Assembly: GCA_963557245.1 (NCBI GenBank)
Contig: CAUWDF010000001.1
Span: 1 to 60,772 of the forward strand
Direction of reading: 5' to 3'
Origin: an uncultured Bulleidia sp.
Lineage (GTDB): Bacteria > Bacillota_I > Bacilli_A > Erysipelotrichales > Erysipelotrichaceae
Length of the DNA stretch: 60,772 bases
Shown here: piece by piece, positions 11,025-31,650 of the stretch
How the letters are laid out: each line of letters begins with the position of its first letter
Position numbering within the stretch: position 1 is the stretch's first letter
Position numbers and translations under genes: made by a program
Notes under the pieces: generated by a model
The model's input: the letters and a program-made list of their open reading frames with translations, nothing else
Told to the model about the DNA's origin: nothing
Databases searched by the model: none

Positions 11025-11723
11025 TTAAAGTGGCTTTTTCTTCATTGTTCCATAATTACGAGGATATTCCGCAGGTGTTTTCTTCGCTTTACGATAGAAT
11101 AGATTGACTCTCGCATCTCCAGAGAACAAAGATACATCCTGTTCTTTTTCTAATACAGCACCCAATACATCTGTCGCATGTTTCGCTTCTACAGCTTCTT
11201 CATGTCCTTTCGATCCCTTCATAGCGATAAAAAGGCCAGTAGTCTGTACAAGTGGAAGAGTAAGCTCGGATAGGAGGCGCAGGTTCGCAACAGCTCTTGC
11301 TGTAACGACTTGGAAAGAACTGCGAGCTTTTGTGACAAATTCTTCCGCACGTTCATTCACGACTTGTATCTCTTTTAATCCAAGATCCTGAATAACTGCA
11401 TTTAAGAAATTACATCTTTTGCCAGTAGGTTCCACAAGTGTAATCTTGAGATCAGGGCGCACAATTTTCCATACAAGTCCTGGAAAACCAGCTCCAGATC
11501 CAATATCGGCAACCTTTCCACTTAATTCCTTAACGGATAATGGCAAAATACAATCATAGAAATGTTTTTCAAATACTTCTTCCTTTTCTGTGATTGCAGT
11601 CAGATTCATCTTTTCATTCCATTCGCGCAAAAGATCCGCATACCGAATCAATTGAGCGACCATCTCTTCAGAAAGAATGACACCGCATTCTTCACTCTTT
11701 TTTACTAATTCTTCAATTGTCAT
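11025..11723 (-). CDS. rsmG: 16S rRNA m7G527 methyltransferase
   Basis: WNEKMNLTAI, DIGSGAGFPG, VTARAVA. Confidence 0.97.
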   Translation of the reverse strand: MTIEELVKKSEECGVILSEEMVAQLIRYADLLREWNEKMNLTAITEKEEVFEKHFYDCILPLSVKELSGKVADIGSGAGFPGLVWKIVRPDLKITLVEPTGKRCNFLNAVIQDLGLKEIQVVNERAEEFVTKARSSFQVVTARAVANLRLLSELTLPLVQTTGLFIAMKGSKGHEEAVEAKHATDVLGAVLEKEQDVSLFSGDARVNLFYRKAKKTPAEYPRNYGTMKKKPL

Positions 11724-11787
11724 TCCTTCATCCTTCTCTTTCTTTAAAATCATAACACTCTCATTTTTATAATAAAAGATTAAAATA

Positions 11788-11888
11788 TGTGGAAAACTTT
11801 TTTGTCCACAATTTTTGATATAGAAAGTGCATGAATAAGCCCTTTTACACTATTAGGCTAAAGAAAGTGGATAAAATATTTATCCACT
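11788..11888. promoter_or_regulatory. DnaA-box cluster upstream of rsmG
   Basis: TGTGGAAAA (11788), TTGTCCACA (11802), AGTGGATAA (11866), TTATCCACT (11880), each one mismatch from TTATCCACA. Confidence 0.65.
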
Positions 11889-11899
11889 TATATAGGAAT

Positions 11900-12541
11900 T
11901 TAAAATGATTTAACTTCTTCTCCAATAATAAATTCAGCATGGGGCAGTGTCTCTACCCACTTGCAGAAAGCACGCCATTCTGGCAAACGATGATCTTTTC
12001 TCTGATGATAGATTGTTTTTAATGCACGATAATTTGTAGTCATTTTCGCTGTCAAACGGAATCCGGCAGGATTGGAATATAAGATTTCTAAGTATTTTTC
12101 ATTCGATTGCTTTGTCAGTTCATGAACATCGCCGCCCATTTCTTTACAAGCCGCAATTTCATCCTGTATTGCATTATATTCCTTTACTTTCTCTTTCATA
12201 ATTTCTACGATTCTAGAATCCGTATAAGGCATGTACGCGCCATCCAAATCAAACTTCGTAATACGATGCATCGTAGATTGGGAAGACACAAAATCAAGGA
12301 ACTTATAACGTTCCGCTTCAACCCAAGCTTTATTAGAGAATGTTAAATCAAACTGTACAACGATTCCTGTCATGAATTGATCATGACCACTACCGGTTGG
12401 ACAAGTTGCTAGAGCCATCGTTGATTTTGTAATCTCGGATGTGACTTTATTTAGATCAACGGCATAAGAATACTTCGCACCCTTTACCGCATCTTCAAAC
12501 CCATAAATATGGACATTGGATACTACATCCTGATAATTCAT
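11900..12541 (-). CDS. Divergent ThyX-like (flavin-dependent thymidylate synthase fold) protein
   Basis: GSGHDQF..IVVQFDL, ERYK....SSQSTMH and NPAGFRLTAKMTTNYRALKTIYHQRKDHRLPEW align with the ThyX motifs GH-S-FE, RHRx7S and LP..T.N.R.L....R....Q.E. Confidence 0.7.
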   Translation of the reverse strand: MNYQDVVSNVHIYGFEDAVKGAKYSYAVDLNKVTSEITKSTMALATCPTGSGHDQFMTGIVVQFDLTFSNKAWVEAERYKFLDFVSSQSTMHRITKFDLDGAYMPYTDSRIVEIMKEKVKEYNAIQDEIAACKEMGGDVHELTKQSNEKYLEILYSNPAGFRLTAKMTTNYRALKTIYHQRKDHRLPEWRAFCKWVETLPHAEFIIGEEVKSF

Positions 12542-14418
12542 TTATTCAATCCCTTTCCTTGTTTAACCGCAATAGCTAGTACGGCAAGATCGGCCGGATT
12601 GACACCGGATATACGACTTGCCTGTCCCATTGTGGCAGGTTTATATTTCATGAGCTTCTGTCTACCTTCAATGGATAGATTATCGACTTCATCATAATTA
12701 AAATCGACACCAAGTTTGATTTCTTCCATAGACTTCAGCTTTTCCGCTTCTCTCTTTGCTTTTTCAATATAGCCAGCATATTTTAGATCAATATCTGTCT
12801 TGTTCGCTATAAAAGAATCACATGTCTCATCGATACATGCAAATAACTTTTCTGTTTCTACTTTTGGACGACGTACAAGATCTAGACCATTCAAACCACG
12901 ATGTCCATTTTCTTCATAACCACAAGAGAGAAGATAGTCATGAACTTTTGGATCATCTGCTTCAAAAGTTGTTGCCTTAAGCTGTTCTTTTGTATGCTGA
13001 AGAGCTTTTTGTTTTTCATCAAACATCTCCATACGTTCATCACTGATAAGACCTGCATTACGACCAATATGAATCAAGCGCTCTTCGGCATTATCATGAC
13101 GTAAAAGGAGACGGAATTCAGCGCGGCTTGTTAGCAAACGATATGGTTCTAATGTACCCTTTGCCGTTAAGTCGTCTGTCATGACACCGATATACGCTTC
13201 ATCTCTTCCTAATACAATCTGTTCTTTTCCATCTAACTTTAAAGAAGCGTTAATACCTGCCATCATACCTTGTCCAGCTGCTTCTTCATAGCCAGAAGTA
13301 CCATTAACCTGACCAGCTGTATATAAATTTTTTATAATTTTAGATTCATATGTTGGCTTCATTTGTATTGGTAAGATTGCATCATATTCAATAGCATATG
13401 CATATTTCTTGATGATACTGTTCTCGAAACCAGGTAAAGAATGTACCATTTTTTCTTGAATATCTCTTGGTAAAGAAGTAGAGAAACCTTGTACATATGT
13501 TGTATCCATAGAAAGAGATTCTGGTTCTAAGAATAAGAGATGACGTGGTTTATCTTTAAAACGTACTAATTTATCTTCAATGGAAGGACAATAACGAGGT
13601 CCTACGCCTTTTACCACACCCGAATACATAGAAGAACGATTCAGATTCGACAGTATCAGCTCATGTGTTTCTGGTGTTGTATAGGTTAAGTAACATGGAA
13701 CCTGTTGTTCAAATGGTAATACATCTTCTGATCTTGTTATTTCTGAGAAACGTAAAAAACCTTCACTACCAGGTTCATACTTTGTCTTAGAAAAATCAAT
13801 CGAAGATGTGATTACACGAGGTGGTGTTCCCGTCTTTAAACGGAACGTTTCCAAACCAAGTTCACGTAAAGAGGCTGAAAGATCATTTGTAGTCTCTTCC
13901 ATATCTGGACCACCTTCACATACTTCATCGGAAATCATATTGACACCAGCCATATAAGTACCTGTTGTTAAAATAACAATCTCACAAGATAAGAAAGACC
14001 CATCTTTTAAAGTAACACCTGTAATCTTATGATTCTTAGCATGAATACGAACAGCCATTCCTTCTATGACTGTTAGATTTTCTTGATGCAAACATACATC
14101 TTGCATCATCTTTTTATAAGCAATTTTATCCGACTGGACACGAAGCGCACGTACGCCCGGTCCTTTCGCACTGTTCAACATCTTAAACTGTAGAGCAGTA
14201 TGATCGGCTGTAATCGGCATTTGACCACCTAAAGCATCCAATTCACGAACAACAATTCCCTTTGCCGGTCCACCTACAGAAGGATTACATGGCATTTTAC
14301 CGATATTACGAATTGATAATGTCAAAAGACATGTTTTTTTCTTTGTACGAGCGGCTGCGAGTGCTGCTTCAATACCAGCATGGCCGCCTCCAATAACGAT
14401 GATATCAAAATCACGCAT
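12538..14418 (-). CDS. mnmG: tRNA U34 carboxymethylaminomethyl modification enzyme MnmG/GidA
   Basis: GGGHAGIEAA, MPCNPSVGG, GPRYCPSIEDK, GTSGYEEAAGQG. Confidence 0.99.
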   Translation of the reverse strand: MRDFDIIVIGGGHAGIEAALAAARTKKKTCLLTLSIRNIGKMPCNPSVGGPAKGIVVRELDALGGQMPITADHTALQFKMLNSAKGPGVRALRVQSDKIAYKKMMQDVCLHQENLTVIEGMAVRIHAKNHKITGVTLKDGSFLSCEIVILTTGTYMAGVNMISDEVCEGGPDMEETTNDLSASLRELGLETFRLKTGTPPRVITSSIDFSKTKYEPGSEGFLRFSEITRSEDVLPFEQQVPCYLTYTTPETHELILSNLNRSSMYSGVVKGVGPRYCPSIEDKLVRFKDKPRHLLFLEPESLSMDTTYVQGFSTSLPRDIQEKMVHSLPGFENSIIKKYAYAIEYDAILPIQMKPTYESKIIKNLYTAGQVNGTSGYEEAAGQGMMAGINASLKLDGKEQIVLGRDEAYIGVMTDDLTAKGTLEPYRLLTSRAEFRLLLRHDNAEERLIHIGRNAGLISDERMEMFDEKQKALQHTKEQLKATTFEADDPKVHDYLLSCGYEENGHRGLNGLDLVRRPKVETEKLFACIDETCDSFIANKTDIDLKYAGYIEKAKREAEKLKSMEEIKLGVDFNYDEVDNLSIEGRQKLMKYKPATMGQASRISGVNPADLAVLAIAVKQGKGLNK

Positions 14419-15310
14419 GATTAATTTGTTCCACCAGTTCTTTCACTTCCAGATCCTCTTTATCACTTATAATGGTAAAGATAACTTTTTTTTCAAAATT
14501 CAGTTTCTTTGTCCAATATTTATATAAAAGGATCTTCCCATATAATTCTCGGATTTTTGCATCCCTATCATTTGTCTGATAACAGAGAGCGAACGCTACC
14601 TTCACTTTATAACGATCCATCATCATAATGTCGGTCTCCGAGCCAATAATGCGTTCCCATTTCGTATCTGTCAGCTTTTCCGTGATAAGTTTGCGACATC
14701 TGTCCTTTTCACGTTGGCTAAAGGAAGACTTACCACACAGTTCTCCTATCATGGCTAGTTTATGGCGCATGACATCTGCGCGGAATATATCATCTGGTGT
14801 ACGATTCGGATCTAATGACCATAAATCGATTCCATGTTTTCGTGCACATTCTAAAATCATTACTGTCACTTTTGAATCCGACCGATCCAAATAAATATAA
14901 CTCTCTAAATGAATCGGAAAATCAATTCCGAACTCTTGCGGATAGACTGGCGTTAAAAAGAATACCACATCTGTCAGATACAAACACCGCATCTGTTTTG
15001 GAATCTCACCTTTTGCGGCTTTGGCAATTGCATCCTCAAGCCTTTGCTTTGAAGAATATCCAGTCGATTCCCCATATTGCTTCCACATCTGATTCAAGGA
15101 AAGACACTTTGTAGAATCATAATGCGCATATCCCACAAGTCCTTTTTTCCTGCCCCGTATCGGACGTGAGTAAAAGAATAGAAGATCCCCTTTATGGAAA
15201 TCCGCTATTTTTCTTTTACTTGCTAAACGCCAGAAAAGGATTGTGCGATTGCGACACAATCTATGATATTCCAGCATTTCTTCATCCGTTACGTAAGCTA
15301 TTGAACTCAT
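14411..15310 (-). CDS. Hypothetical protein: N-terminal PUA/EVE-like domain, C-terminal possibly degenerate PD-(D/E)xK-like domain
   Basis: AYVTD..FW..GDLLFFY..GLVGYAHY..MWKQYG...G..CLYLTDVVFF pattern; C-terminal IRELYGKILLY. Confidence 0.55.
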   Translation of the reverse strand: MSSIAYVTDEEMLEYHRLCRNRTILFWRLASKRKIADFHKGDLLFFYSRPIRGRKKGLVGYAHYDSTKCLSLNQMWKQYGESTGYSSKQRLEDAIAKAAKGEIPKQMRCLYLTDVVFFLTPVYPQEFGIDFPIHLESYIYLDRSDSKVTVMILECARKHGIDLWSLDPNRTPDDIFRADVMRHKLAMIGELCGKSSFSQREKDRCRKLITEKLTDTKWERIIGSETDIMMMDRYKVKVAFALCYQTNDRDAKIRELYGKILLYKYWTKKLNFEKKVIFTIISDKEDLEVKELVEQINHA

Positions 15311-15319
15311 TTTCTATCC

Positions 15320-16984
15320 TTAAAATAATCCGTATGTTTCGCCGTTTTCATCTACACCCATATGGATGGCTGCAGGTTCTTTTGGAAGACCCGGCATAGT
15401 CATAATATTTCCTGTATAAGCAACTGCAAATCCTGCACCTGCAGAAATTGTCAGATCTCTTACATGAATTGTAAATCCTTCTGGACGGCCCTTGATTTTA
15501 GCATCGTCTGTAAGGGAATTTGGTGTCTTAGCCATGCAAATTGGCAAGTTGTCCCAATGATTCTTCTTAAATACTTCAATCTTTTCTTTTGCAAGATCAG
15601 AGAATTCAACTCCATCTGCACCATAAATTTCTTTGGCGATTGTATTAATCTTTTCTTCAATGGAAAGATTGACATCATATAAAGGATGGAAAGCATTTGC
15701 CTGGTCACAAGCATCTAATACGAGATTTGTAAGATTCTTCATACCAGCGCCACCATTTGCCCATCCATCGGCCAGAGCGACTGGATGACCAGCTTCTTTA
15801 CACCAATTCATTAAAGCATCTACTTCCGCTGGCGTATCCGTTGCGAACTTATTAATTGCAATGACATATGGAAGTCCAAACTTTTGAATAGATTCTACAT
15901 GTCTCTGTAAGTTTGCTGCACCCTTTAATAATGCTTCTACATTTTCTTCCCCGAGATTTTCTTCTACACCACCATGCATCTTTAAGGCACGGATTGTGGC
16001 AACGATAACAACAGCATTTGGATGTAATCCTGCTGCACGACACTTAATATCCAAGAATTTTTCAGCACCTAAATCAGCACCAAATCCTGCTTCTGTCACA
16101 ACATACTCAGACAACTTCAACGCAGTCTTTGTAGCAATTACTGAGTTACAGCCATGCGCAATATTTGCGAATGGTCCACCATGGATAAAGACTGGAGTAT
16201 GTTCCAGTGTCTGTACGAGGTTTGGCTTTAAAGCCTCCTTCATTAAGACTGTAGCCGCTCCATCTGCCTGAATATCCTTTACTGTAACTGGCTTATCGTC
16301 ATATGTATAAGCTACGACACACTTGCCGATTCTTTCATGGAAGTCTTTTAAATCATCCGAAAGACAAAGAATCGCCATAACTTCTGTTGCAACTGTAATA
16401 ACAAATCCATCTTTTCTTTCGACACCATTTGTCTTCTTATCCTGTGCAATTGTAATGGAACGAAGAGTACGGTCATTCATATCCATACATCTCTTCCATA
16501 CAACCTTTTCTGGATCAATATTTAATGGATTTCCCTGATAAATCGAATTATCTAGAATCGCTGCAATCAGATTATTTACGGAAGTGATTGCATGCATATC
16601 CCCTGTAAAATGAAGATTGATTGATTCCATTGGGATGACCTGAGCATAGCCACCGCCAGTAGCGCCACCTTTCAGACCAAATACAGGTCCAAGAGATGGT
16701 TCGCGAAGACATGCCATAACTTTCTTACCTGCTCTTGCAAGTCCATCCGCAAGACCAATTGTAGTTGTTGATTTACCTTCACCTGCTTTTGTTGGATTGA
16801 TTGCTGTAACAAGGATCAATTTGCCATCTTCTTTATCCTTTAAAGAACGATATAATTCTGGGCTAACTTTTGCTTTATCATTTCCATACATTTCAAGATA
16901 AGATTCCGCAATTCCTGCACGTTCGGCAATCTTGCGAATATCTTCCATTTTTGCATCCTGAGCAATTTTGAGGTCTGTGTTCAT
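15320..16984 (-). CDS. fhs: Formate--tetrahydrofolate ligase
   Basis: TKAGEGKSTT, GLKGGATGGG, HGGPFANIAHGCNS, TMPGLP. Confidence 0.99.
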   Translation of the reverse strand: MNTDLKIAQDAKMEDIRKIAERAGIAESYLEMYGNDKAKVSPELYRSLKDKEDGKLILVTAINPTKAGEGKSTTTIGLADGLARAGKKVMACLREPSLGPVFGLKGGATGGGYAQVIPMESINLHFTGDMHAITSVNNLIAAILDNSIYQGNPLNIDPEKVVWKRCMDMNDRTLRSITIAQDKKTNGVERKDGFVITVATEVMAILCLSDDLKDFHERIGKCVVAYTYDDKPVTVKDIQADGAATVLMKEALKPNLVQTLEHTPVFIHGGPFANIAHGCNSVIATKTALKLSEYVVTEAGFGADLGAEKFLDIKCRAAGLHPNAVVIVATIRALKMHGGVEENLGEENVEALLKGAANLQRHVESIQKFGLPYVIAINKFATDTPAEVDALMNWCKEAGHPVALADGWANGGAGMKNLTNLVLDACDQANAFHPLYDVNLSIEEKINTIAKEIYGADGVEFSDLAKEKIEVFKKNHWDNLPICMAKTPNSLTDDAKIKGRPEGFTIHVRDLTISAGAGFAVAYTGNIMTMPGLPKEPAAIHMGVDENGETYGLF

Positions 16985-16999
16985 TTTACATTTCCTTTC

Positions 17000-17596
17000 T
17001 TATTTCATTTTGCGACGATCTGCTAATGCATGTGCTAATGTCATATCGTCTGCGTAATCTAATAATCCTCCAGATGGAAGACCATGAGCAATTCTAGTTA
17101 CTAATACATCAGGATTCTTTTCCTGAATCAATTTATCCAAATACATCGCTGTTGTTTCACCATCCATCGTTGTACTTGTCGCAAGAATAATTTCTTTAGC
17201 ATCTTCAGAGCGTTCTAATAAGCTATCCACGTTCAAATCTTCTGGCATAATACCTTTAGATGGGGAAATCAGACCATTTAGTACATGATAGACTCCTCGG
17301 TATTCACCTGTACGTTCCATAGCTGATACATCTTTTGCTGACTGTACAACAAAGATTGTATGATGGTCGCGACTCGTATCCGCACATACTTCACAAGTAT
17401 CATGATCGGATAGATTTCCGCATACCTTACAACGTGTCAGTTTTGTTTTTACATTAACGATAGCTTTGACGAACTCTTCGCAACGGCTCGCATCCATATC
17501 TGCAATTGCCAATGCATAGCGTTCCGCCGTCTTTTCGCCTACTCCTGGGAGTTCACGAAACTGTTCAATTAAATTTCTAAGACTCTGTGGGTACAT
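17000..17596 (-). CDS. recR: Recombination mediator RecR
   Basis: LPGVGEKTAER, C4 zinc finger, YHVLNGLISP. Confidence 0.98.
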   Translation of the reverse strand: MYPQSLRNLIEQFRELPGVGEKTAERYALAIADMDASRCEEFVKAIVNVKTKLTRCKVCGNLSDHDTCEVCADTSRDHHTIFVVQSAKDVSAMERTGEYRGVYHVLNGLISPSKGIMPEDLNVDSLLERSEDAKEIILATSTTMDGETTAMYLDKLIQEKNPDVLVTRIAHGLPSGGLLDYADDMTLAHALADRRKMK

Positions 17597-17598
17597 TC

Positions 17599-17892
17599 TT
17601 ACATCCCCGGCAGAGCCATATTCTGTGTTGCTTCATCGAGACGCTGTTCACGATCCTGTGCAGCCTTAGATGTCGCATCATTGAATGCAATCATGATCAC
17701 ATCCTGTAACATCTCACGATCCGTTAACATATCTTCTGGAATCTCGACAAGAAGACATTCACTTTTACCATTTACTTTAATTGTTACACCATTCGATGTA
17801 CCAGTATATTCTGTTTCGTCTAATTCCTGGCCAATATTACTTAAGTTCTGCTGCATCTTCTGTGCATCACGCATTAATTTCTGTAAATCCAT
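17599..17892 (-). CDS. ybaB: YbaB/EbfC nucleoid-associated protein
   Basis: MRDAQKMQQ...DREMLQDVI; located between dnaX and recR. Confidence 0.93.
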   Translation of the reverse strand: MDLQKLMRDAQKMQQNLSNIGQELDETEYTGTSNGVTIKVNGKSECLLVEIPEDMLTDREMLQDVIMIAFNDATSKAAQDREQRLDEATQNMALPGM

Positions 17893-17902
17893 GTTTTATC
17901 TC

Positions 17903-19648
17903 CTATTGTATTTCTACATTCTCTTTCCCAAAAAAATTCAATACTTTTTCTTCTGGAGTTTCTTCATTGATATGTTCTGGAATATACTTTTCAATCACTT
18001 TTTTTGCTGGTAATGTCCCATTCAACATTCTTTCACGGAACTTTTCACGTGCTTTTGTAAATGCATCACTCTGAATAGCACATACGACTTTATCGGTACT
18101 CATATCATTCTTCAAAAAGAAGTAGAGTTCACGATTCATTTCCACAGCGTTGATACGATTGACAACTGCCTGTTGTTTACATTTCAACAAGATAATATCC
18201 TTACCACTTGCAGCAATCTCAGACATATCTAATAGATTGATATACTTCCGATTTTCTATCGTACTGTGACTCTTTAACATAGCAAAGGTATTTTCATCGC
18301 TTACTTTACTCTGTTTATCACATACAACTAAGATAGAAAGAATATTTTCTTCGTCTAATTCAATCTTTTCTTCCTTCTCAATTGGTACTGGTTCTTCTAT
18401 CTTTTCCTCTTGTGTCGGAACCGGTAGTGCAGATGACGTTTCTACAACTGGTTTCGATTCCATATACGCTGGAACAGAAACAGGATTTGAAGTATGGGTA
18501 ATAGACACTGTTTCTTTGTCTGTGTTCTGTGATTCTGTAACCTTCGGTGCTACCATCACTGGAACTGCATGGAAGTCTTTCGTTGCTAAGTGCAAGCATA
18601 CAACCTCAAAAGTCATTGCAGTACTCTGCGATACACGATACTTTCCCTTTGCGTCAATCAACTTTTCTGCAATCTGCATACATGTCTCTTCATCCGCAAG
18701 AGATAAGATTTCTCGTGCATTTTCTTTTGTAATCAGTTTGAGTAAGTTTTCCTTTTCGGTATTCTTATAAATAACAGTTTCTTTCAAAATATTGATCATA
18801 CCATCGGTGAAACGCATTAAATCAATACCTCGTTCTTCATAATCTTGAATACGTTGAATCAAAGATTCAATATTATGTTGGAGGATATCTTTTATTAAAT
18901 GAACCTTTTCTTCCGCTGTTGTAAGACCATAGATGCGATCGATTGCTTCTGTTGTAATACAATCACTCGTATAAGAAGCACATTGATCCATGATAGATAA
19001 TGCATCACGCATTCCTCCATCTGCCAATTCTGCAATCATCAATGCAGCTTCTGATTCCATTTGGATATTTTCTTTTTGAGCAATATCTAATAAATGGTTC
19101 TGAATCTGATCTTTTTTAACTTTTGTAAAGTCAAAACGCTGACAACGCGAAATAATAGTAGGCAATAACTTCTGTGGATCCGTTGTTGCAAGAATAAAGA
19201 TTACATTTTCTGGTGGTTCTTCCAATGTTTTTAATAAAGCGCTGGAAGCAGCGGATGAAAGCTGATGCACCTCGTCAATAATATATACTTTGTGTTTTCC
19301 CTGCATTGGTGCCAGGCTGGAACGTTCAATCAGTTCCCGAATATCTTCTACATGCGTCTCGTTTGCCGCATTAATTTCGATAATATCTGGATGTGTCCCC
19401 TCTGTTGCAGCTATACAGTTCTGACATACACCACATGGTGCTTCTGCTGGATTTTCGCAATTCACAGCTTTTGCGAGTAATCTTGCCATGGTTGTCTTAC
19501 CTGTTCCACGTGGACCGCAGAACAAATAAGCATGTCCAACTTTATTTTCATGTACTGCATTCATAATGGAACGCACAACATATTCCTGTCCAACAACCTC
19601 ATTAAAGGTCTGGGATCTATATTTCTGGTATAATGCAAGTTTTGCCAT
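17903..19648 (-). CDS. dnaX: DNA polymerase III gamma/tau subunit
   Basis: LYQKYRS, GPRGTGKTT, IIDEVH, ISRCQ. Confidence 0.98.
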   Translation of the reverse strand: MAKLALYQKYRSQTFNEVVGQEYVVRSIMNAVHENKVGHAYLFCGPRGTGKTTMARLLAKAVNCENPAEAPCGVCQNCIAATEGTHPDIIEINAANETHVEDIRELIERSSLAPMQGKHKVYIIDEVHQLSSAASSALLKTLEEPPENVIFILATTDPQKLLPTIISRCQRFDFTKVKKDQIQNHLLDIAQKENIQMESEAALMIAELADGGMRDALSIMDQCASYTSDCITTEAIDRIYGLTTAEEKVHLIKDILQHNIESLIQRIQDYEERGIDLMRFTDGMINILKETVIYKNTEKENLLKLITKENAREILSLADEETCMQIAEKLIDAKGKYRVSQSTAMTFEVVCLHLATKDFHAVPVMVAPKVTESQNTDKETVSITHTSNPVSVPAYMESKPVVETSSALPVPTQEEKIEEPVPIEKEEKIELDEENILSILVVCDKQSKVSDENTFAMLKSHSTIENRKYINLLDMSEIAASGKDIILLKCKQQAVVNRINAVEMNRELYFFLKNDMSTDKVVCAIQSDAFTKAREKFRERMLNGTLPAKKVIEKYIPEHINEETPEEKVLNFFGKENVEIQ

Positions 19649-27562: not shown

Positions 27563-28639
27563 CTATAATTTATGAATGATTCCATTTTCAATATGGAATT
27601 CTGTTATTTTTTTATTTTTTAAAAAGGAAGGGACTTCTGTCGCTGTGATCATACATTGATATGGACTACTGACAAGAGATAATAATCTTTTTTGTCTTGT
27701 CTGGTCTAATTCACTCAGCACGTCATCCAGTAATAATACTGGCTCCTTCCCTGTCATAGAACGAATATATTCCAGTAAGCTTAATTTAAAAGCCAACATG
27801 ACCATTCTTTTCTGCCCCTGACTTGCAAGATCTGTGATCGGTCTATCTTTCATAGTAAAGAGGATATCTTCCCGATGAATACCAAACGAGGTCACGCGAC
27901 TATCAATGTCTTTTTTCCGATATTCTTGATGTTTCTTAAGAATATCTTCTTGCCCAAAAGAATCATTGCAACAACGATATACAATCGCTACATCGCAATC
28001 TTCTCCAGCTATTTTTTGATACATTGTTCGCATATATTGATTCAATGTATCTACGAAATGCTTTCGCATCTCTATAATGACAGCTTCTTCTTTTGCCATC
28101 TGAACATCTAATGTATCAAGAAGAGCTACATCTGGTTCTGGTCTTTTTAAAATCAGATTTCTTTCTTTTAGAAAAGATTGAAAACGATTTAAAGAAAGAA
28201 GATAAGCAGAAGATACTTTTGTAATCTCCTGATTCATCATTCTTCGTCGATCTTTTGGAGAGTCAGAAAAGAGACGTAAATCATCTGGTGCAAAGAGAAC
28301 TGTATTTAGGATTCCTACAAATTCACTGCTACGACTAACTGGTTGATGATGTACGAGCAATGTCTTGCCTTTCGGATGAATGACCGCTTCCATTTCTTTC
28401 TGTTTTCCATTTTCTTCGCAGACACAACGAATGTCCGCAAATGGCATCTGATCTCGAATTAATTTTTTATCATCTGCAATTCGATGACTTCTTGTTAAAG
28501 AAAGATATACAAGACTCTCTAATAAATTTGTCTTGCCTTGTGCATTTTCACCTGTAAAAACGTTCAGATGTGGATCAAATGTCATATATAAAGATTCATA
28601 GTTTCTGAAATTACGTAATTTAAGACTTTTAATAATCAT
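27563..28639 (-). CDS. recF: DNA replication/repair protein RecF
   Basis: [30 protein letters not shown]. Confidence 0.98.
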
Positions 28640-28839
28640 CAGGAAACAATGAACTTCTTTCCGTTGATTTTCACTTCATCACCTGGATACAGTTTTTTAC
28701 CTCTTCTGTTCTCAGGTTCACCATTGACGTAGATTTCCGATTCTTGAACCATTATCTTAGCTTCACCGCCTGTTTGAGCGACACCTACAAACTTTAGAAA
28801 CTGCTGTAATGTAATGTATTCAGTCGTGATTTTATTCAT
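28639..28839 (-). CDS. yaaA: S4-domain RNA-binding protein YaaA
   Basis: EYITLQQFLK...TGGEAK...VNGEPENRRGKKL. Confidence 0.93.
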   Translation of the reverse strand: MNKITTEYITLQQFLKFVGVAQTGGEAKIMVQESEIYVNGEPENRRGKKLYPGDEVKINGKKFIVS

Positions 28840-28995
28840 GAAAATCTCCCTTGTTTTTTTTATATGATAAAGCTTCTTAATTATATCATAAAATAGCAAA
28901 AAATTCCTGTCTCCAAGCAGGGAAATAGGAATTGTGAAAACTATTTCATAAATGAAAAAAAGGATACTTCCTAAAAGAGGAAATATCCCAAATTT

Positions 28996-30117
28996 TTAAT
29001 TATATGTGCGTACAGGAAGGACAAGCTGCAAAATGGTTTCATCCTGTGGATCCGTCAGGATAAATGGTCTCATATCTCCTTTGAACTGAATCATGATTGT
29101 ATCACTCTTGAAAGCTCTTGCGGCTTCTAAAACATAGCTTCCAGAGAAACTAATATCTAAATCCTCTCCTTCAAATGTAGCTGTAAGAGATTCTCTTGAT
29201 TCACCGATTTCTTGTGATTTACTTGTTAAAATGACTTCATTGGCACTGCACTGTAGACGGTTGACATTCATATTGTCACTCTTGATGAATGTAGTACGAT
29301 CGATCGCATGAATCAGATCCATACGATTGATTGTAAGCTTATAATCAAAAGCATCAGGAATTAAACGATCGGTATCCGGATAACCACCATCAAGAAGACG
29401 TGTCTGTAATAACATATCATCACTATAGAACTGAGCTTTCTTATCACTCATAGCCATTACAATCATCTGATCTTGATCTAAAATCATTGTAGAACGAATT
29501 TCATTTAATGATTTTGCAGGAATTGTAATATCAAAAGAAGCATCTACATTGAATGGAAGTGTCTTTTTTGCAAGACGATAGGAATCGGTTGCTGTACATG
29601 TTAAGACATGATCTTTTAAAGAAAAATGAACACCTGTGAGAACGGGTCTTGTTTCTTTAATTGCAGTAGCGAATGTTGTTTCTTCGATAATTTCAGAAAG
29701 AATGCTGCTTTGAATAGAGATGCTATCAGCAGGTCTAGAGAAATCAATGGTTGGATAATCATTTACATTCATACCATTAATTTTAAATACAGCAGAATTA
29801 CCAGAGAATCTTGTTAAAGCTCCATCTAATACTTCAATCGTAATTATTTCAGAATCTAATTTTTTAACAATGTCTAAAAGATATTTTGCTTCAATTAGAA
29901 TCGAACCTTCTTCTGAAATAACGAGATTATTGGAGTCATTTGCTGTAATAGTCTTTTCAATAGAGATATCAGCGTCACTACCGGTAAGAATTAACGTATT
30001 ATCTTTCGCTGTGATCTTCATGCCTCTAAGAGATGGCTGAGGACTTGTCGATGAGATCGCATGAGATACGATGCTTGCTGTACTTGAGAATGCAGTTTTG
30101 TTGATTGAAAAATTCAT
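28996..30117 (-). CDS. dnaN: DNA polymerase III beta clamp
   Basis: ETRPVLTG, ATDSYRLA, LVLPVR. Confidence 0.98.
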   Translation of the reverse strand: MNFSINKTAFSSTASIVSHAISSTSPQPSLRGMKITAKDNTLILTGSDADISIEKTITANDSNNLVISEEGSILIEAKYLLDIVKKLDSEIITIEVLDGALTRFSGNSAVFKINGMNVNDYPTIDFSRPADSISIQSSILSEIIEETTFATAIKETRPVLTGVHFSLKDHVLTCTATDSYRLAKKTLPFNVDASFDITIPAKSLNEIRSTMILDQDQMIVMAMSDKKAQFYSDDMLLQTRLLDGGYPDTDRLIPDAFDYKLTINRMDLIHAIDRTTFIKSDNMNVNRLQCSANEVILTSKSQEIGESRESLTATFEGEDLDISFSGSYVLEAARAFKSDTIMIQFKGDMRPFILTDPQDETILQLVLPVRTYN

Positions 30118-30139
30118 TTTAGTAATGCCTCCTATTTCG

Positions 30140-30279
30140 CTTTTATTAATAATATATATTTATTAAGTCTTATTGTTATTAGAACTGTGGGAATTGTGGA
30201 AAACTTTTTAAAAAGCTTTATTTATCCACAAATCCAAGTGCTTTTATGCGTTGAAATGTGGTGGACAAATTTGTGGAAA
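30140..30279. other. oriC unwinding region (dnaA-dnaN intergenic): DnaA boxes, DnaA-trio-like tract, AT-rich segment
   Basis: Perfect TTATCCACA at 30222; tandem boxes at 30186-30203 followed on the minus strand by CTA-ATA-ACA-ATA-AGA and an AT-rich run, as in the Bacillus basal unwinding system. Confidence 0.85.
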
Positions 30280-31650
30280 TCAGTTTGTTAACTGCTTTTC
30301 TAGATCATTGACCGCATTTGCATAAGCTGGATCCTTCTTAATTTGCTTCTCTACTTTCGCGCATGCTGAGATGATTGTAGAGTGGTCACGCCCTCCAAAT
30401 TCATCTCCTATCTTAATATACGGCAAATCGAGTAATTTTCGGCATAAATAAATCGAAATATGTCTCGCATTTGCAATATTCTTTGTTCGAGTTTTTGAAG
30501 TTATTTGTTGTTTTGTCAGTCCATAGTAGTCCGCTACCGTTTTAATAATCTTTTTCGGTGAAAGACCAGTCTTATCGGAAACGACAGCATGACTCTTTAA
30601 GGCATTCATAACAGTCTCAAACTTGATACAACCTCCATCTGGTTGGAATTCGATTGCATAGAACAGGACACGATTCCATGCCCCTTCTAGATCTCGTACA
30701 TTACCAGAGAAGTTAGAGGCGATATAATTCAGACCTTCATCATCGACATCATCAATACCATATCCATTCTGACGTATCTTCATCTGTAAAATAGCAAGTG
30801 AAGTTTCAAATTCAGGTGAGTCAATACCAACGGAAAGCCCACTCGAGAAACGAGAAATCAGACGATCTTCCAGTCCTTTGATTTCGCGTGGTTGCCGATC
30901 CGATGCAATACATACCTGTTTTCGGTTATTGACCAGCTCATTATATATAGTAAAGAAGATCTCATGAGATTTTTCTTTACCAGCAAGGAACTGGATATCA
31001 TCAACTAAGAATAAATCGATATTATACATATATTGTTTAAAGGCTTCGATCTTATTCTCACGTATGGCATTGACAACGGTCTCAACGAATTTTAAGGACT
31101 CAGTATAGTAAACCTTCTTCGTTGGATCGTTTTTTAATACATAATTGGCAATTGCCATTAATAGATGTGTCTTACCCAGGCCAGAATTACCATATATAAA
31201 TAAAGGATTGAAGAATTTACCAGGATTTAGAGCACAAGCAAGAGCGGCAGCTTGGGATTCACGGTTACAGTCGCCTACTACAAAATTATCGAAAGTACGC
31301 TCTTTTTGGATTGGCATAGATTGAAAATCCGTGTCGTTGAGCGGTACAGGTTTAATAGGGACAGTACGATTGGAAAGTTCCGCTGGCTGACATATTTCAA
31401 GCATGAGTGAGTTATTAAGGTCCAGCACGGTTACAAAAGCTTCCGATATCATATCCGACTGCGATTGCAAGATAGATTTCGAAATAATATTTGGCGCAGA
31501 TATAACTGCTTTTTCTTCGGACAATTCATAGATACTACAAGGTTTATAGAAGTTATCTATAATTTCCGGTTCTAGGTTCTTGTTCGTCAGAAGATAATGG
31601 AGAACCTTAGTCCATACTTCTGATAGGTATTGATCTTTAGTAAACGACAT
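30280..31650 (-). CDS. dnaA: Chromosomal replication initiator DnaA
   Basis: NPLFIYGNSGLGKTHL, DDIQF, GGRDHSTI. Confidence 0.99.
   Translation of the reverse strand: MSFTKDQYLSEVWTKVLHYLLTNKNLEPEIIDNFYKPCSIYELSEEKAVISAPNIISKSILQSQSDMISEAFVTVLDLNNSLMLEICQPAELSNRTVPIKPVPLNDTDFQSMPIQKERTFDNFVVGDCNRESQAAALACALNPGKFFNPLFIYGNSGLGKTHLLMAIANYVLKNDPTKKVYYTESLKFVETVVNAIRENKIEAFKQYMYNIDLFLVDDIQFLAGKEKSHEIFFTIYNELVNNRKQVCIASDRQPREIKGLEDRLISRFSSGLSVGIDSPEFETSLAILQMKIRQNGYGIDDVDDEGLNYIASNFSGNVRDLEGAWNRVLFYAIEFQPDGGCIKFETVMNALKSHAVVSDKTGLSPKKIIKTVADYYGLTKQQITSKTRTKNIANARHISIYLCRKLLDLPYIKIGDEFGGRDHSTIISACAKVEKQIKKDPAYANAVNDLEKQLTN

Follow-up and report, generated by a model that had tools for sequence, protein, structure and literature searches.

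The window analysed here, a 60,772-nucleotide stretch of DNA from an uncultured Bulleidia sp., carries on its reverse strand the tightly spaced run dnaX-ybaB-recR-fhs-ORF299-mnmG-ORF213. The first three genes (17000..19648) take their names from the translations in the list of open reading frames, and recR ends 15 bp upstream of fhs (15320..16984), which is thus not the first gene of the run. The latter encodes a 554-aa formate-tetrahydrofolate ligase (PF01268, E 3e-263; NF010030, 885.7 bits against a cut-off of 652) and is separated by 9 bp from a 299-aa reading frame (14411..15310), whose product unites an ASCH/PUA fold with a nuclease fold, as judged from structure comparison and column counts. 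This frame overlaps by 8 bp with mnmG (gidA; 12538..14418), coding for the 626-aa tRNA U34 modification enzyme (TIGR00136, 802 bits, cut-off 524.85), which in turn overlaps by 4 bp with a 213-aa reading frame (11900..12541). This last gene, assigned by profile to the unnamed family phrog_6721 (E 3e-49) and by Foldseek to the ThyX fold, is termed XL here for brevity. The rsmG gene, also on the reverse strand (11025..11753; TIGR00138, 169.9 bits, over the cut-off), starts 146 bp beyond XL. The order, overlaps and 9-bp gap are exactly those described in an earlier, sequence-only reading of this DNA, as is the splitting of the mnmG-rsmG pair: rsmG, which normally follows mnmG directly, is displaced by XL, whereas 7 of 8 loci from other families of the order preserve the adjacency.

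Gene order around mnmG and the ASCH protein

The sequence-only reading went on to propose that the four genes from fhs to XL form a coordinated module for one-carbon modification of uracil C5. The overlap of start and stop codons was not accepted as support for such a module, since closely packed genes are common in this genome: of 50 neighbouring same-strand pairs in the window, 17 overlap and 28 lie within 20 bp. A scan of positions 11600-12100 for promoters and terminators gave nothing decisive. The region is covered in two gut metatranscriptome assemblies at flat depth and in long contigs, which points to DNA as a possible source, so that this coverage is no proof of expression.

Among loci of the genus the dnaX-ybaB-recR order is kept, the full order recurs in 22 of 30, reaching records titled Holdemania and Anaerorhabdus, and the ASCH gene directly precedes mnmG in 30 of 31. 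Together with the failure of a motif search to find SHMT in the source genome, which suggests that one-carbon units for all these enzymes may enter mainly through Fhs, this conservation favours a scheme in which Fhs, the ASCH protein, MnmG and XL jointly modify uridine at C5, in tRNA or in DNA. We nonetheless regard this scheme as very improbable. Each part is lost or relocated separately: of the genus loci reaching beyond mnmG, 4 have no XL, while fhs does not precede the ASCH gene in 4 and the ASCH gene is missing in 1; a glycoside-hydrolase-like gene is also found inserted at this site. Beyond the genus and its surroundings the parts occur separately, with XL located behind folD or gyrB or in phage regions, and the copies viewed in family f9, Clostridia and phages adjoin neither mnmG nor an ASCH gene. 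Moreover, mnmE and trmFO are already present for tRNA uracil C5 chemistry. The string is therefore likely to reflect a gene order particular to the lineage and not a single joint machinery, and MnmG is an ordinary tRNA U34 modification enzyme whose partner gene mnmE lies on contig C86.

The 299-aa protein had been described as PUA-like from its sequence, and structural comparisons bear this out. Its N-terminal domain, spanning about residues 7-163, adopts the ASCH/PUA fold (VIA-align against ZmASCH, PDB: 5guq, Z 10.0, rmsd 3.2, 134 aligned), with Foldseek supporting a PUA-like β-barrel at E 1e-4. The C-terminal domain (197-299) is restriction-endonuclease-like and superimposes on a repair endonuclease (PDB: 2vld; Z 6.5, rmsd 2.7, 84 aligned). 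Column counts show conservation of E201 (71/74) and D227 (69/74), and a search for the catalytic D...(D/E)-x-K signature of modification-dependent PD-(D/E)xK restriction nucleases found neither a conserved acid nor a conserved lysine in columns 236-243, the position of the strand having been derived from secondary structure. A PADLOC search gave no match to this protein better than a borderline E of 0.01. The gene was detected in 35 of 51 genomes of family f1 and in 0 of 16 others, and is thus confined to f1 among the genomes tested. It is distributed independently of XL: 16 thyA genomes carry it without XL, and in 15 of 30 loci mnmG does not follow within 1.5 kb. The 299-aa protein probably serves as an independent binder of nucleic acids whose nuclease domain is predicted to be inactive.

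Predicted fold and conserved residues of the XL protein

In Foldseek searches with the model of XL (pLDDT 96.2) the top matches were all ThyX (best E 2.9e-7, TM 0.49-0.67, identity 13-18%), with no other family among the matches listed, and the ThyX-like label given to the protein by the earlier reading accordingly holds. At the sequence level XL scores 14.7 bits with the Pfam Thy1 model, under its cut-off of 24.8, and 14 of 73 members of the XL family match the Thy1 profile at E<=0.05 (best 5e-7). As sequence and profile searches of the PDB with XL recovered no ThyX, the link between the two depends on structure. NCBIfam holds no model fitting XL or the 299-aa protein, and XL is annotated as a hypothetical protein in the records examined. 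Clustering of the 8000 scored candidates at 90% identity gave 7999 clusters. A scan of 32 longer relatives for fused metabolic domains recovered HNH (4) and HTH (1) domains alone. Full-text literature searches, in a collection with limited coverage of subscription journals, listed no paper whose title or opening lines of the abstract pointed to the family.

Residues of XL were related to those of ThyX through a profile alignment (probability 55.9) rather than a residue-level superposition. On this mapping the uracil-binding arginine (M. tuberculosis R199) corresponds to XL R181, kept in 70 of 73 members, and the active-site serine (S105) to S89, kept in all 73; R181, S89, P158 and W189 are invariant in the 66 genome-derived copies. 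H53, present in 67/73, aligns with the GH motif of canonical ThyX, which we take to be equivalent to H53 of the T. maritima enzyme. The latter is reported to be the folate-stacking histidine (PMC11940539), and RHR (M. tuberculosis 95-97) to be the FAD-binding motif (PMC6514825). RHR is absent from XL, where R-Y-H/K stands in its place (R78 70/73, Y79 72/73, H/K80 57/73), and a subfamily B comprising 10 of 66 copies has T-Y-K, with threonine for the first arginine. The arginine and lid tyrosine of the S-x-R-Y loop (M. tuberculosis R107, Y108) map to M91 and H92 if the alignment is ungapped; hhalign opens a two-residue gap that pairs R107 with R93, itself R/K in 51/73 and cysteine in 20/66 genome copies. 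On the profile alignment, XL appears to lack several residues with which ThyX binds dUMP or FAD, since the equivalents of M. tuberculosis R87, R107, Y108 and R190 do not appear to be conserved. The Met91-His92 pair is a conserved feature specific to the XL family.

The missing RHR motif and several non-conserved phosphate-binding arginines, taken with the conserved Met91-His92 pair and the loss of even the first arginine in subfamily B, would suit a protein that makes dTMP by non-ThyX chemistry, whether with another cofactor or reductant or at the level of deoxyuridine or dUDP. We hold this to be rather unlikely, as XL retains the entire ThyX fold along with His53, Ser89, Asn170 and Arg181. 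This alternative and the explanation favoured below overlap on function and differ in mechanism.

Phyletic distribution and genomic contexts of XL

The source genome, which is 97.6% complete, yielded no match to PF00303 or PF02511, and tblastn searches that started from two ThyA and three ThyX sequences found nothing either; it encodes thymidine kinase and, besides mnmE and trmFO, a DHFR. In a draw across the phylum restricted to genomes with a completeness of 95% or more, 101 belong to families f1, f9, f15 and f26; of these, 53 have XL only, 43 thyA only, 4 both and 1 neither. XL is thus found in 53 of 54 genomes lacking thyA and thyX as against 4 of 47 with thyA. Canonical thyX occurs in 1 of the 101, a genome that also has thyA, and swaps between XL and thyA are seen within genera g81, g137 and g80. 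Likewise, in a draw of Clostridia XL is present in 7 of the 15 genomes that lack both enzymes, compared with 1 of 134 that have one of them, the latter being a partial copy. Fisher values for these contrasts are overstated because related genomes are non-independent. Among genomes of the genus, 20 of 21 with neither thyA nor thyX have XL; the locus of the exception, G025, is probably unassembled, because this genome also lacks an mnmG match. A quick tree, unrooted in effect, was built on 9 rows from the genus and every other f9 locus. It leaves 46 of 99 inner branches open; copies of the genus, those of f9/f26 and those of subfamily B fall apart from one another, but the tree does not demonstrate independent acquisitions.

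The exclusion is weaker inside the genus: 9 of 14 genomes with thyA, and both of those with thyX, retain XL. This retention, the thymidine kinase of the source genome and the description of Bulleidia extructa as dependent on nucleotide salvage (PMC12786226) would accord with XL being some other nucleotide or folate enzyme, acting for instance in pyrimidine salvage or folate recycling, that is useful once thyA is lost and thymidine is salvaged. Life without XL, thyA and thyX is common, probably by way of salvage: of the 138 phylum-draw genomes without either known enzyme, 85 have no XL, with 72 of these belonging to family f7, and XL is likewise absent from 8 of the 15 such Clostridia genomes. 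However, the salvage-type family f7 is devoid of XL throughout (0/89), which argues against a salvage role.

Several contexts of XL in other lineages accord with de novo synthesis of dTMP. The folD gene lies directly upstream of XL in 24 of the 24 loci inspected in f9, as well as in the f26 locus, preceded in 6 XL loci by a ComEB/dCMP-deaminase-type gene; in several Clostridia XL follows gyrB; and in phage-type loci it is found near genes for dNMP kinase, NT5C, ribonucleotide reductases and dUTPase. Furthermore, five large phage records with XL carry neither thyA nor thyX. In view of these linkages we consider a salvage or recycling enzyme improbable. A DHFR gene stands beside thyA in 9 of 9 f9 loci, whereas searches of 4 XL-only f9 genomes found DHFR in 0 of the 4. 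This would be expected if the reaction released THF, and it also speaks against the non-ThyX chemistry raised above. An in-place swap of XL by thyA behind folD was looked for and not seen, folD lying within 1.5 kb in 0 of 9 f9 thyA loci.

Probable role of XL and comparison with known systems

Its ThyX-like fold and its occurrence mostly in gut bacteria without detected thyA or thyX make XL the likely missing thymidylate synthase, most likely a variant of the flavin-dependent type. We conclude that it is quite probably the thymidylate synthase of this bacterium, a divergent ThyX-fold protein predicted to convert dUMP to dTMP with flavin and methylene-THF in a remodelled active site, and set in a four-gene string that likely reflects lineage-specific order. 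Of what the sequence-only reading had suggested for this protein, dTMP synthesis thus stands as the likely job, and a part in a coordinated uracil-C5 module does not. In the proposed reaction, dUMP would be supplied by dCMP deaminase and methylene-THF would come from formate via Fhs and FolD; an XL oligomer with bound flavin would then transfer and reduce the one-carbon unit and release THF, so that DHFR would not be needed. Known flavin-dependent thymidylate synthases are homotetramers that bind FAD where their subunits meet. Arg181 would likely activate the uracil and His53 likely stack the folate, with an invariant S-x-S-x-M-H loop presumably taking the place of S-x-R-Y.

All cells depend on dTMP that they either synthesise or take up, and to our knowledge only two families of dTMP-making enzymes are known. 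It is possible, and we suggest it tentatively, that XL constitutes a third class with a ThyX scaffold, a different mode of cofactor binding and a Met-His catalytic loop. In that case a large group of unannotated proteins, spread among gut bacteria and their phages, would have taken the place of thyA repeatedly, in Erysipelotrichaceae, in a second Bacilli-type family and in Clostridia, and would explain many gut genomes modelled as thymidine auxotrophs. XL would fill the dTMP gap in 53 of the 138 phylum-draw genomes and 7 of the 15 Clostridia genomes annotated with neither enzyme. If confirmed, metabolic models that call XL-bearing bacteria thymidine auxotrophs would be wrong, thousands of hypothetical proteins could be assigned a function, and a ThyX-type active site that has been rewired in nature could serve to test which residues the debated flavin mechanism needs.

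Comparable fusions of a PUA-fold reader with a PD-(D/E)xK nuclease resemble the 299-aa protein in domain pairing, and its N-terminal domain shares the ASCH/PUA-like fold of Zymomonas ZmASCH and E. coli YqfB (PDB: 9kyf). Unlike these fusions, it lacks a conserved E-x-K on the expected strand and is encoded by a single-copy gene at a fixed housekeeping site after recR or fhs. The XL protein shares its fold across the whole chain with the flavin-dependent thymidylate synthases (PF02511; H. pylori, PDB: 3ah5, 3n3y; T. maritima, PDB: 1o26), as well as the GH-motif histidine, the first RHR arginine in the main subfamily, the active-site serine, and the asparagine and arginine of the N-x10-R segment. 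It differs in falling below the Pfam cut-off and, on the profile alignment, in having R-Y-H/K-x8-S-x-M-H where ThyX has RHR-x7-S-x-R-Y, with no conservation of several arginines for the dUMP phosphate and FAD. A precedent for a shift of substrate on this fold is PolB, a ThyX paralog reported to methylate UMP in polyoxin biosynthesis (PMC5954106, PMC7226160). PolB is encoded by a second copy of thyX within a biosynthetic cluster, whereas XL is usually the sole thymidylate synthase candidate and lies among housekeeping or dNTP genes. Like ThyX itself, XL is patchily distributed, largely exclusive with thyA and phage-borne.

Gene neighborhood of mnmG and the ORF299 family

The four minus-strand genes around mnmG, namely fhs (15320-16984), ORF299 (14411-15310), mnmG (12538-14418) and ORF213 (11900-12541), were recovered from the ORF list of the window with the coordinates and overlaps of the sequence-only reading, and both fhs and mnmG pass curated cut-offs in profile searches. 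They form part of a longer gene string (dnaX-ybaB-recR-fhs-ORF299-mnmG-ORF213), and 146 bp separate its ORF213 end from rsmG (11025-11753, minus strand). Overlapping neighbors are frequent in the window (17 of 50 same-strand pairs), and close relatives bear the titles Bulleidia, Solobacterium and Erysipelotrichaceae. Upstream lie an ADP-ribosylglycohydrolase gene (PF03747; 20489-21286), flanked by serS and tadA, which adjoin each other without it in locus L082, and the origin-region genes dnaA, dnaN, a 358-aa ORF, gyrB and gyrA (27563-31650; named by size and order).

The proposal that the four genes form a coordinated module for one-carbon modification of uracil C5 is not supported by their wider distribution. 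The surroundings of mnmG were examined in 32 of 36 genus relatives, excluding three with short contigs and one without an mnmG match. The complete order is kept in 22 of the 30 loci showing both sides of mnmG. ORF213 or its relatives (hereafter XL) follow mnmG in 27 of the 32 loci, are absent in four, and in one the contig ends too early to show them; four loci lack fhs in front of ORF299, and one lacks ORF299. In eight loci sampled from the order's other families, mnmG has neither fhs, ORF299 nor XL nearby, and outside the genus context XL lies behind folD, behind gyrB or within phage DNA regions. As the parts have been lost or moved separately, XL is placed elsewhere, and mnmE (on contig C86, not beside jag) and trmFO are both present in the window's genome, the string is likely a gene order inherited within one lineage and not a unit. 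Insertions occur at the mnmG-rsmG junction: an ORF of about 400 aa with a lipoprotein-like start precedes rsmG in 12 of the 32 loci, including L069:7682-8872, and the only scanned copy is GHL10 glycoside-hydrolase-like.

The anticipated PUA fold of ORF299 is borne out by its predicted structure (pLDDT 85.8), whose ASCH/PUA-like domain is shared with ZmASCH (Z 10.0). Its C-terminal domain resembles restriction endonucleases in fold (Z at most 6.5, within the range of common arrangements), but column counts show that the expected E-x-K has no counterpart in the family. This family was found in 35 of 51 f1 genomes and in none of 16 genomes from outside f1; 16 thyA genomes without XL carry it. At 15 of its 30 loci mnmG does not follow inside 1.5 kb; in the scanned examples the next gene is for an aldo-keto reductase, or a CYTH gene comes next together with one for NAD kinase. 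Our best guess is that ORF299 binds nucleic acids in a housekeeping role and descends from a fusion of a reader with a nuclease; within the genus, with ORF299 in front of mnmG at 30 of 31 loci, it may have a role with MnmG.

Distribution of XL relative to thyA and thyX

XL is a strong candidate for an unrecognized thymidylate synthase, and its distribution is the decisive evidence on this role. Profile and translated searches of the contigs found neither thyA nor thyX in the window's genome, which is 97.6% complete. A phylum draw comprised 401 genomes with completeness of 95% or more, of which all but G080 and G124 (399) were scored; XL occurs in 57, thyA in 249 and Thy1, the Pfam family of canonical ThyX, in 16. 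Four families hold all of the XL copies, and their 101 genomes comprise 53 with XL only, 43 with thyA only, four with both and one with neither (f1: 19, 26, 3 and 0; f9: 30, 10, 1 and 1; f15: 3, 1, 0 and 0; f26: 1, 6, 0 and 0, respectively). Three genera (g81, g137 and g80) each contain both states. The genomes are kin rather than independent, and hence the counts weigh more than the P values. In a separate draw from the Clostridia, the class of G445 (centre genome and unscored G542 left out), XL is present in seven of 15 genomes without thyA and thyX, with a partial copy in one of 134 that possess at least one of these two enzymes. Among 37 genomes of the genus (69-100% complete), it is present in 20 of 21 lacking both.

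On the contrary side, nine of the 14 genus members with thyA, and the two with thyX, retain XL, while neither enzyme nor XL is found in 85 of 138 phylum genomes and eight of 15 Clostridia lacking both enzymes. Of those 85, 72 belong to family f7, taken to be mycoplasma-like given its small genomes with in-frame TGA; PMC7226160 describes salvage as the route in such bacteria. The eight Clostridia, at least 95% complete (G480, G511, G521, G526, G548, G574, G583 and G598), may possess another hidden enzyme or rely on salvage. PMC2826268 set aside 35 genomes with neither thyA nor thyX above its stringent cut-off.

Gene context of XL and the predicted reaction

The gene context of XL agrees with its distribution. 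All 24 XL loci viewed in f9, out of 31 positives, have folD immediately upstream. The f26 locus shares this arrangement, and six XL loci carry a ComEB/dCMP-deaminase-type gene ahead of folD (1.5-kb view; scores under NCBIfam cut-offs). Such neighbors would supply both substrates of XL. DHFR was not found in four of four XL-only f9 genomes (96-99% complete), as a THF-releasing, ThyX-type reaction predicts, although the sample is small and the window's genome has DHFR. A DHFR gene adjoins thyA in nine of nine f9 loci; these thyA-folA pairs (L283-L291) lie among neighbors differing from genome to genome, as if repeatedly gained as a two-gene cassette.

Of the 31 viral XL loci, which are partly redundant, 16 have a nucleotide-kinase-like gene cluster and 15 have one for NrdD; dUTPase, class I/II reductase and NT5C appear in others. 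The annotated neighbors in phiCD211, Fnu1 and XP41-N3 are replication/recombination genes or hypothetical. Five large phage records with XL, phiCD211 and Fnu1 among them, contain neither thyA nor thyX, in itself weak evidence. An HNH_3 endonuclease domain lies N-terminal to the XL match in the XL relatives P0313, P0255, P0375 and P0328, an arrangement reminiscent of those homing elements whose targets are conserved phage nucleotide genes.

The earlier suggestion that the protein makes dTMP or another C5-modified uridine is narrowed to dTMP as the likely product. The analysis itself shows fold, distribution and neighbors, whereas the bound flavin, the oligomeric state and both substrate and product are predictions. 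The window's genome encodes dCMP deaminase, which would provide dUMP, and Fhs and FolD, which would provide methylene-THF; XL would most likely convert the two to dTMP through a flavin relay with NAD(P)H. A scan of this genome for SHMT motifs was negative, and formate may thus be the principal one-carbon donor, a situation that could favor fhs staying close to folate-using genes.

Fold and conserved residues of XL compared with ThyX

XL belongs to phrog_6721, a family without assigned function, for which a literature search at title and abstract level found no descriptive paper. The family is large (7999 among 8000 candidates scored; 2415 representatives at 50% identity); its protein-atlas neighbors are mainly viral, with Thy1 in 18% of the members of one neighbor cluster. 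Methanosarcina acetivorans, a genetically tractable archaeon used as a control genome, has both a phrog_6721 and a ThyA-family match. ORFs of about 470-510 aa with two tandem Thy1 matches occur in four genomes (G159, G432, G463 and G497).

The ThyX fold suspected for ORF213 is upheld by a model built from 73 sequences (pLDDT 96.2): every match listed by Foldseek against the PDB is ThyX (best E 2.9e-7, TM up to 0.67), and in a viral structure library ThyX ranks next after two uncharacterized proteins. Residues were mapped by aligning the canonical ThyX of genome G433 to M. tuberculosis ThyX, followed by a 12-sequence ThyX alignment and hhalign (probability 55.9), with residue roles taken from PMC6514825 and PMC11940539. 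In this profile alignment XL retains H53, E/Q75, R78, S89, P158, N170 and R181, and the equivalents of M. tuberculosis R87 and R190 are variable. Subfamily B, to which 10 of 66 genome copies belong, replaces R-Y-H/K by T-Y-K and still has S89, M91, H92, R181, H184 and W189; in five Clostridia genomes without thyA and thyX it lies behind a gyrB-like gene, immediately or with one small ORF between them (L243-L247). On the whole, XL is predicted to share the fold of ThyX, but the RHR membership motif of ThyX is replaced by R-Y-H/K, and S-x-R-Y by S-x-M-H, suggesting a protein that probably acts in a ThyX-like manner while departing from the defining motif of that family.
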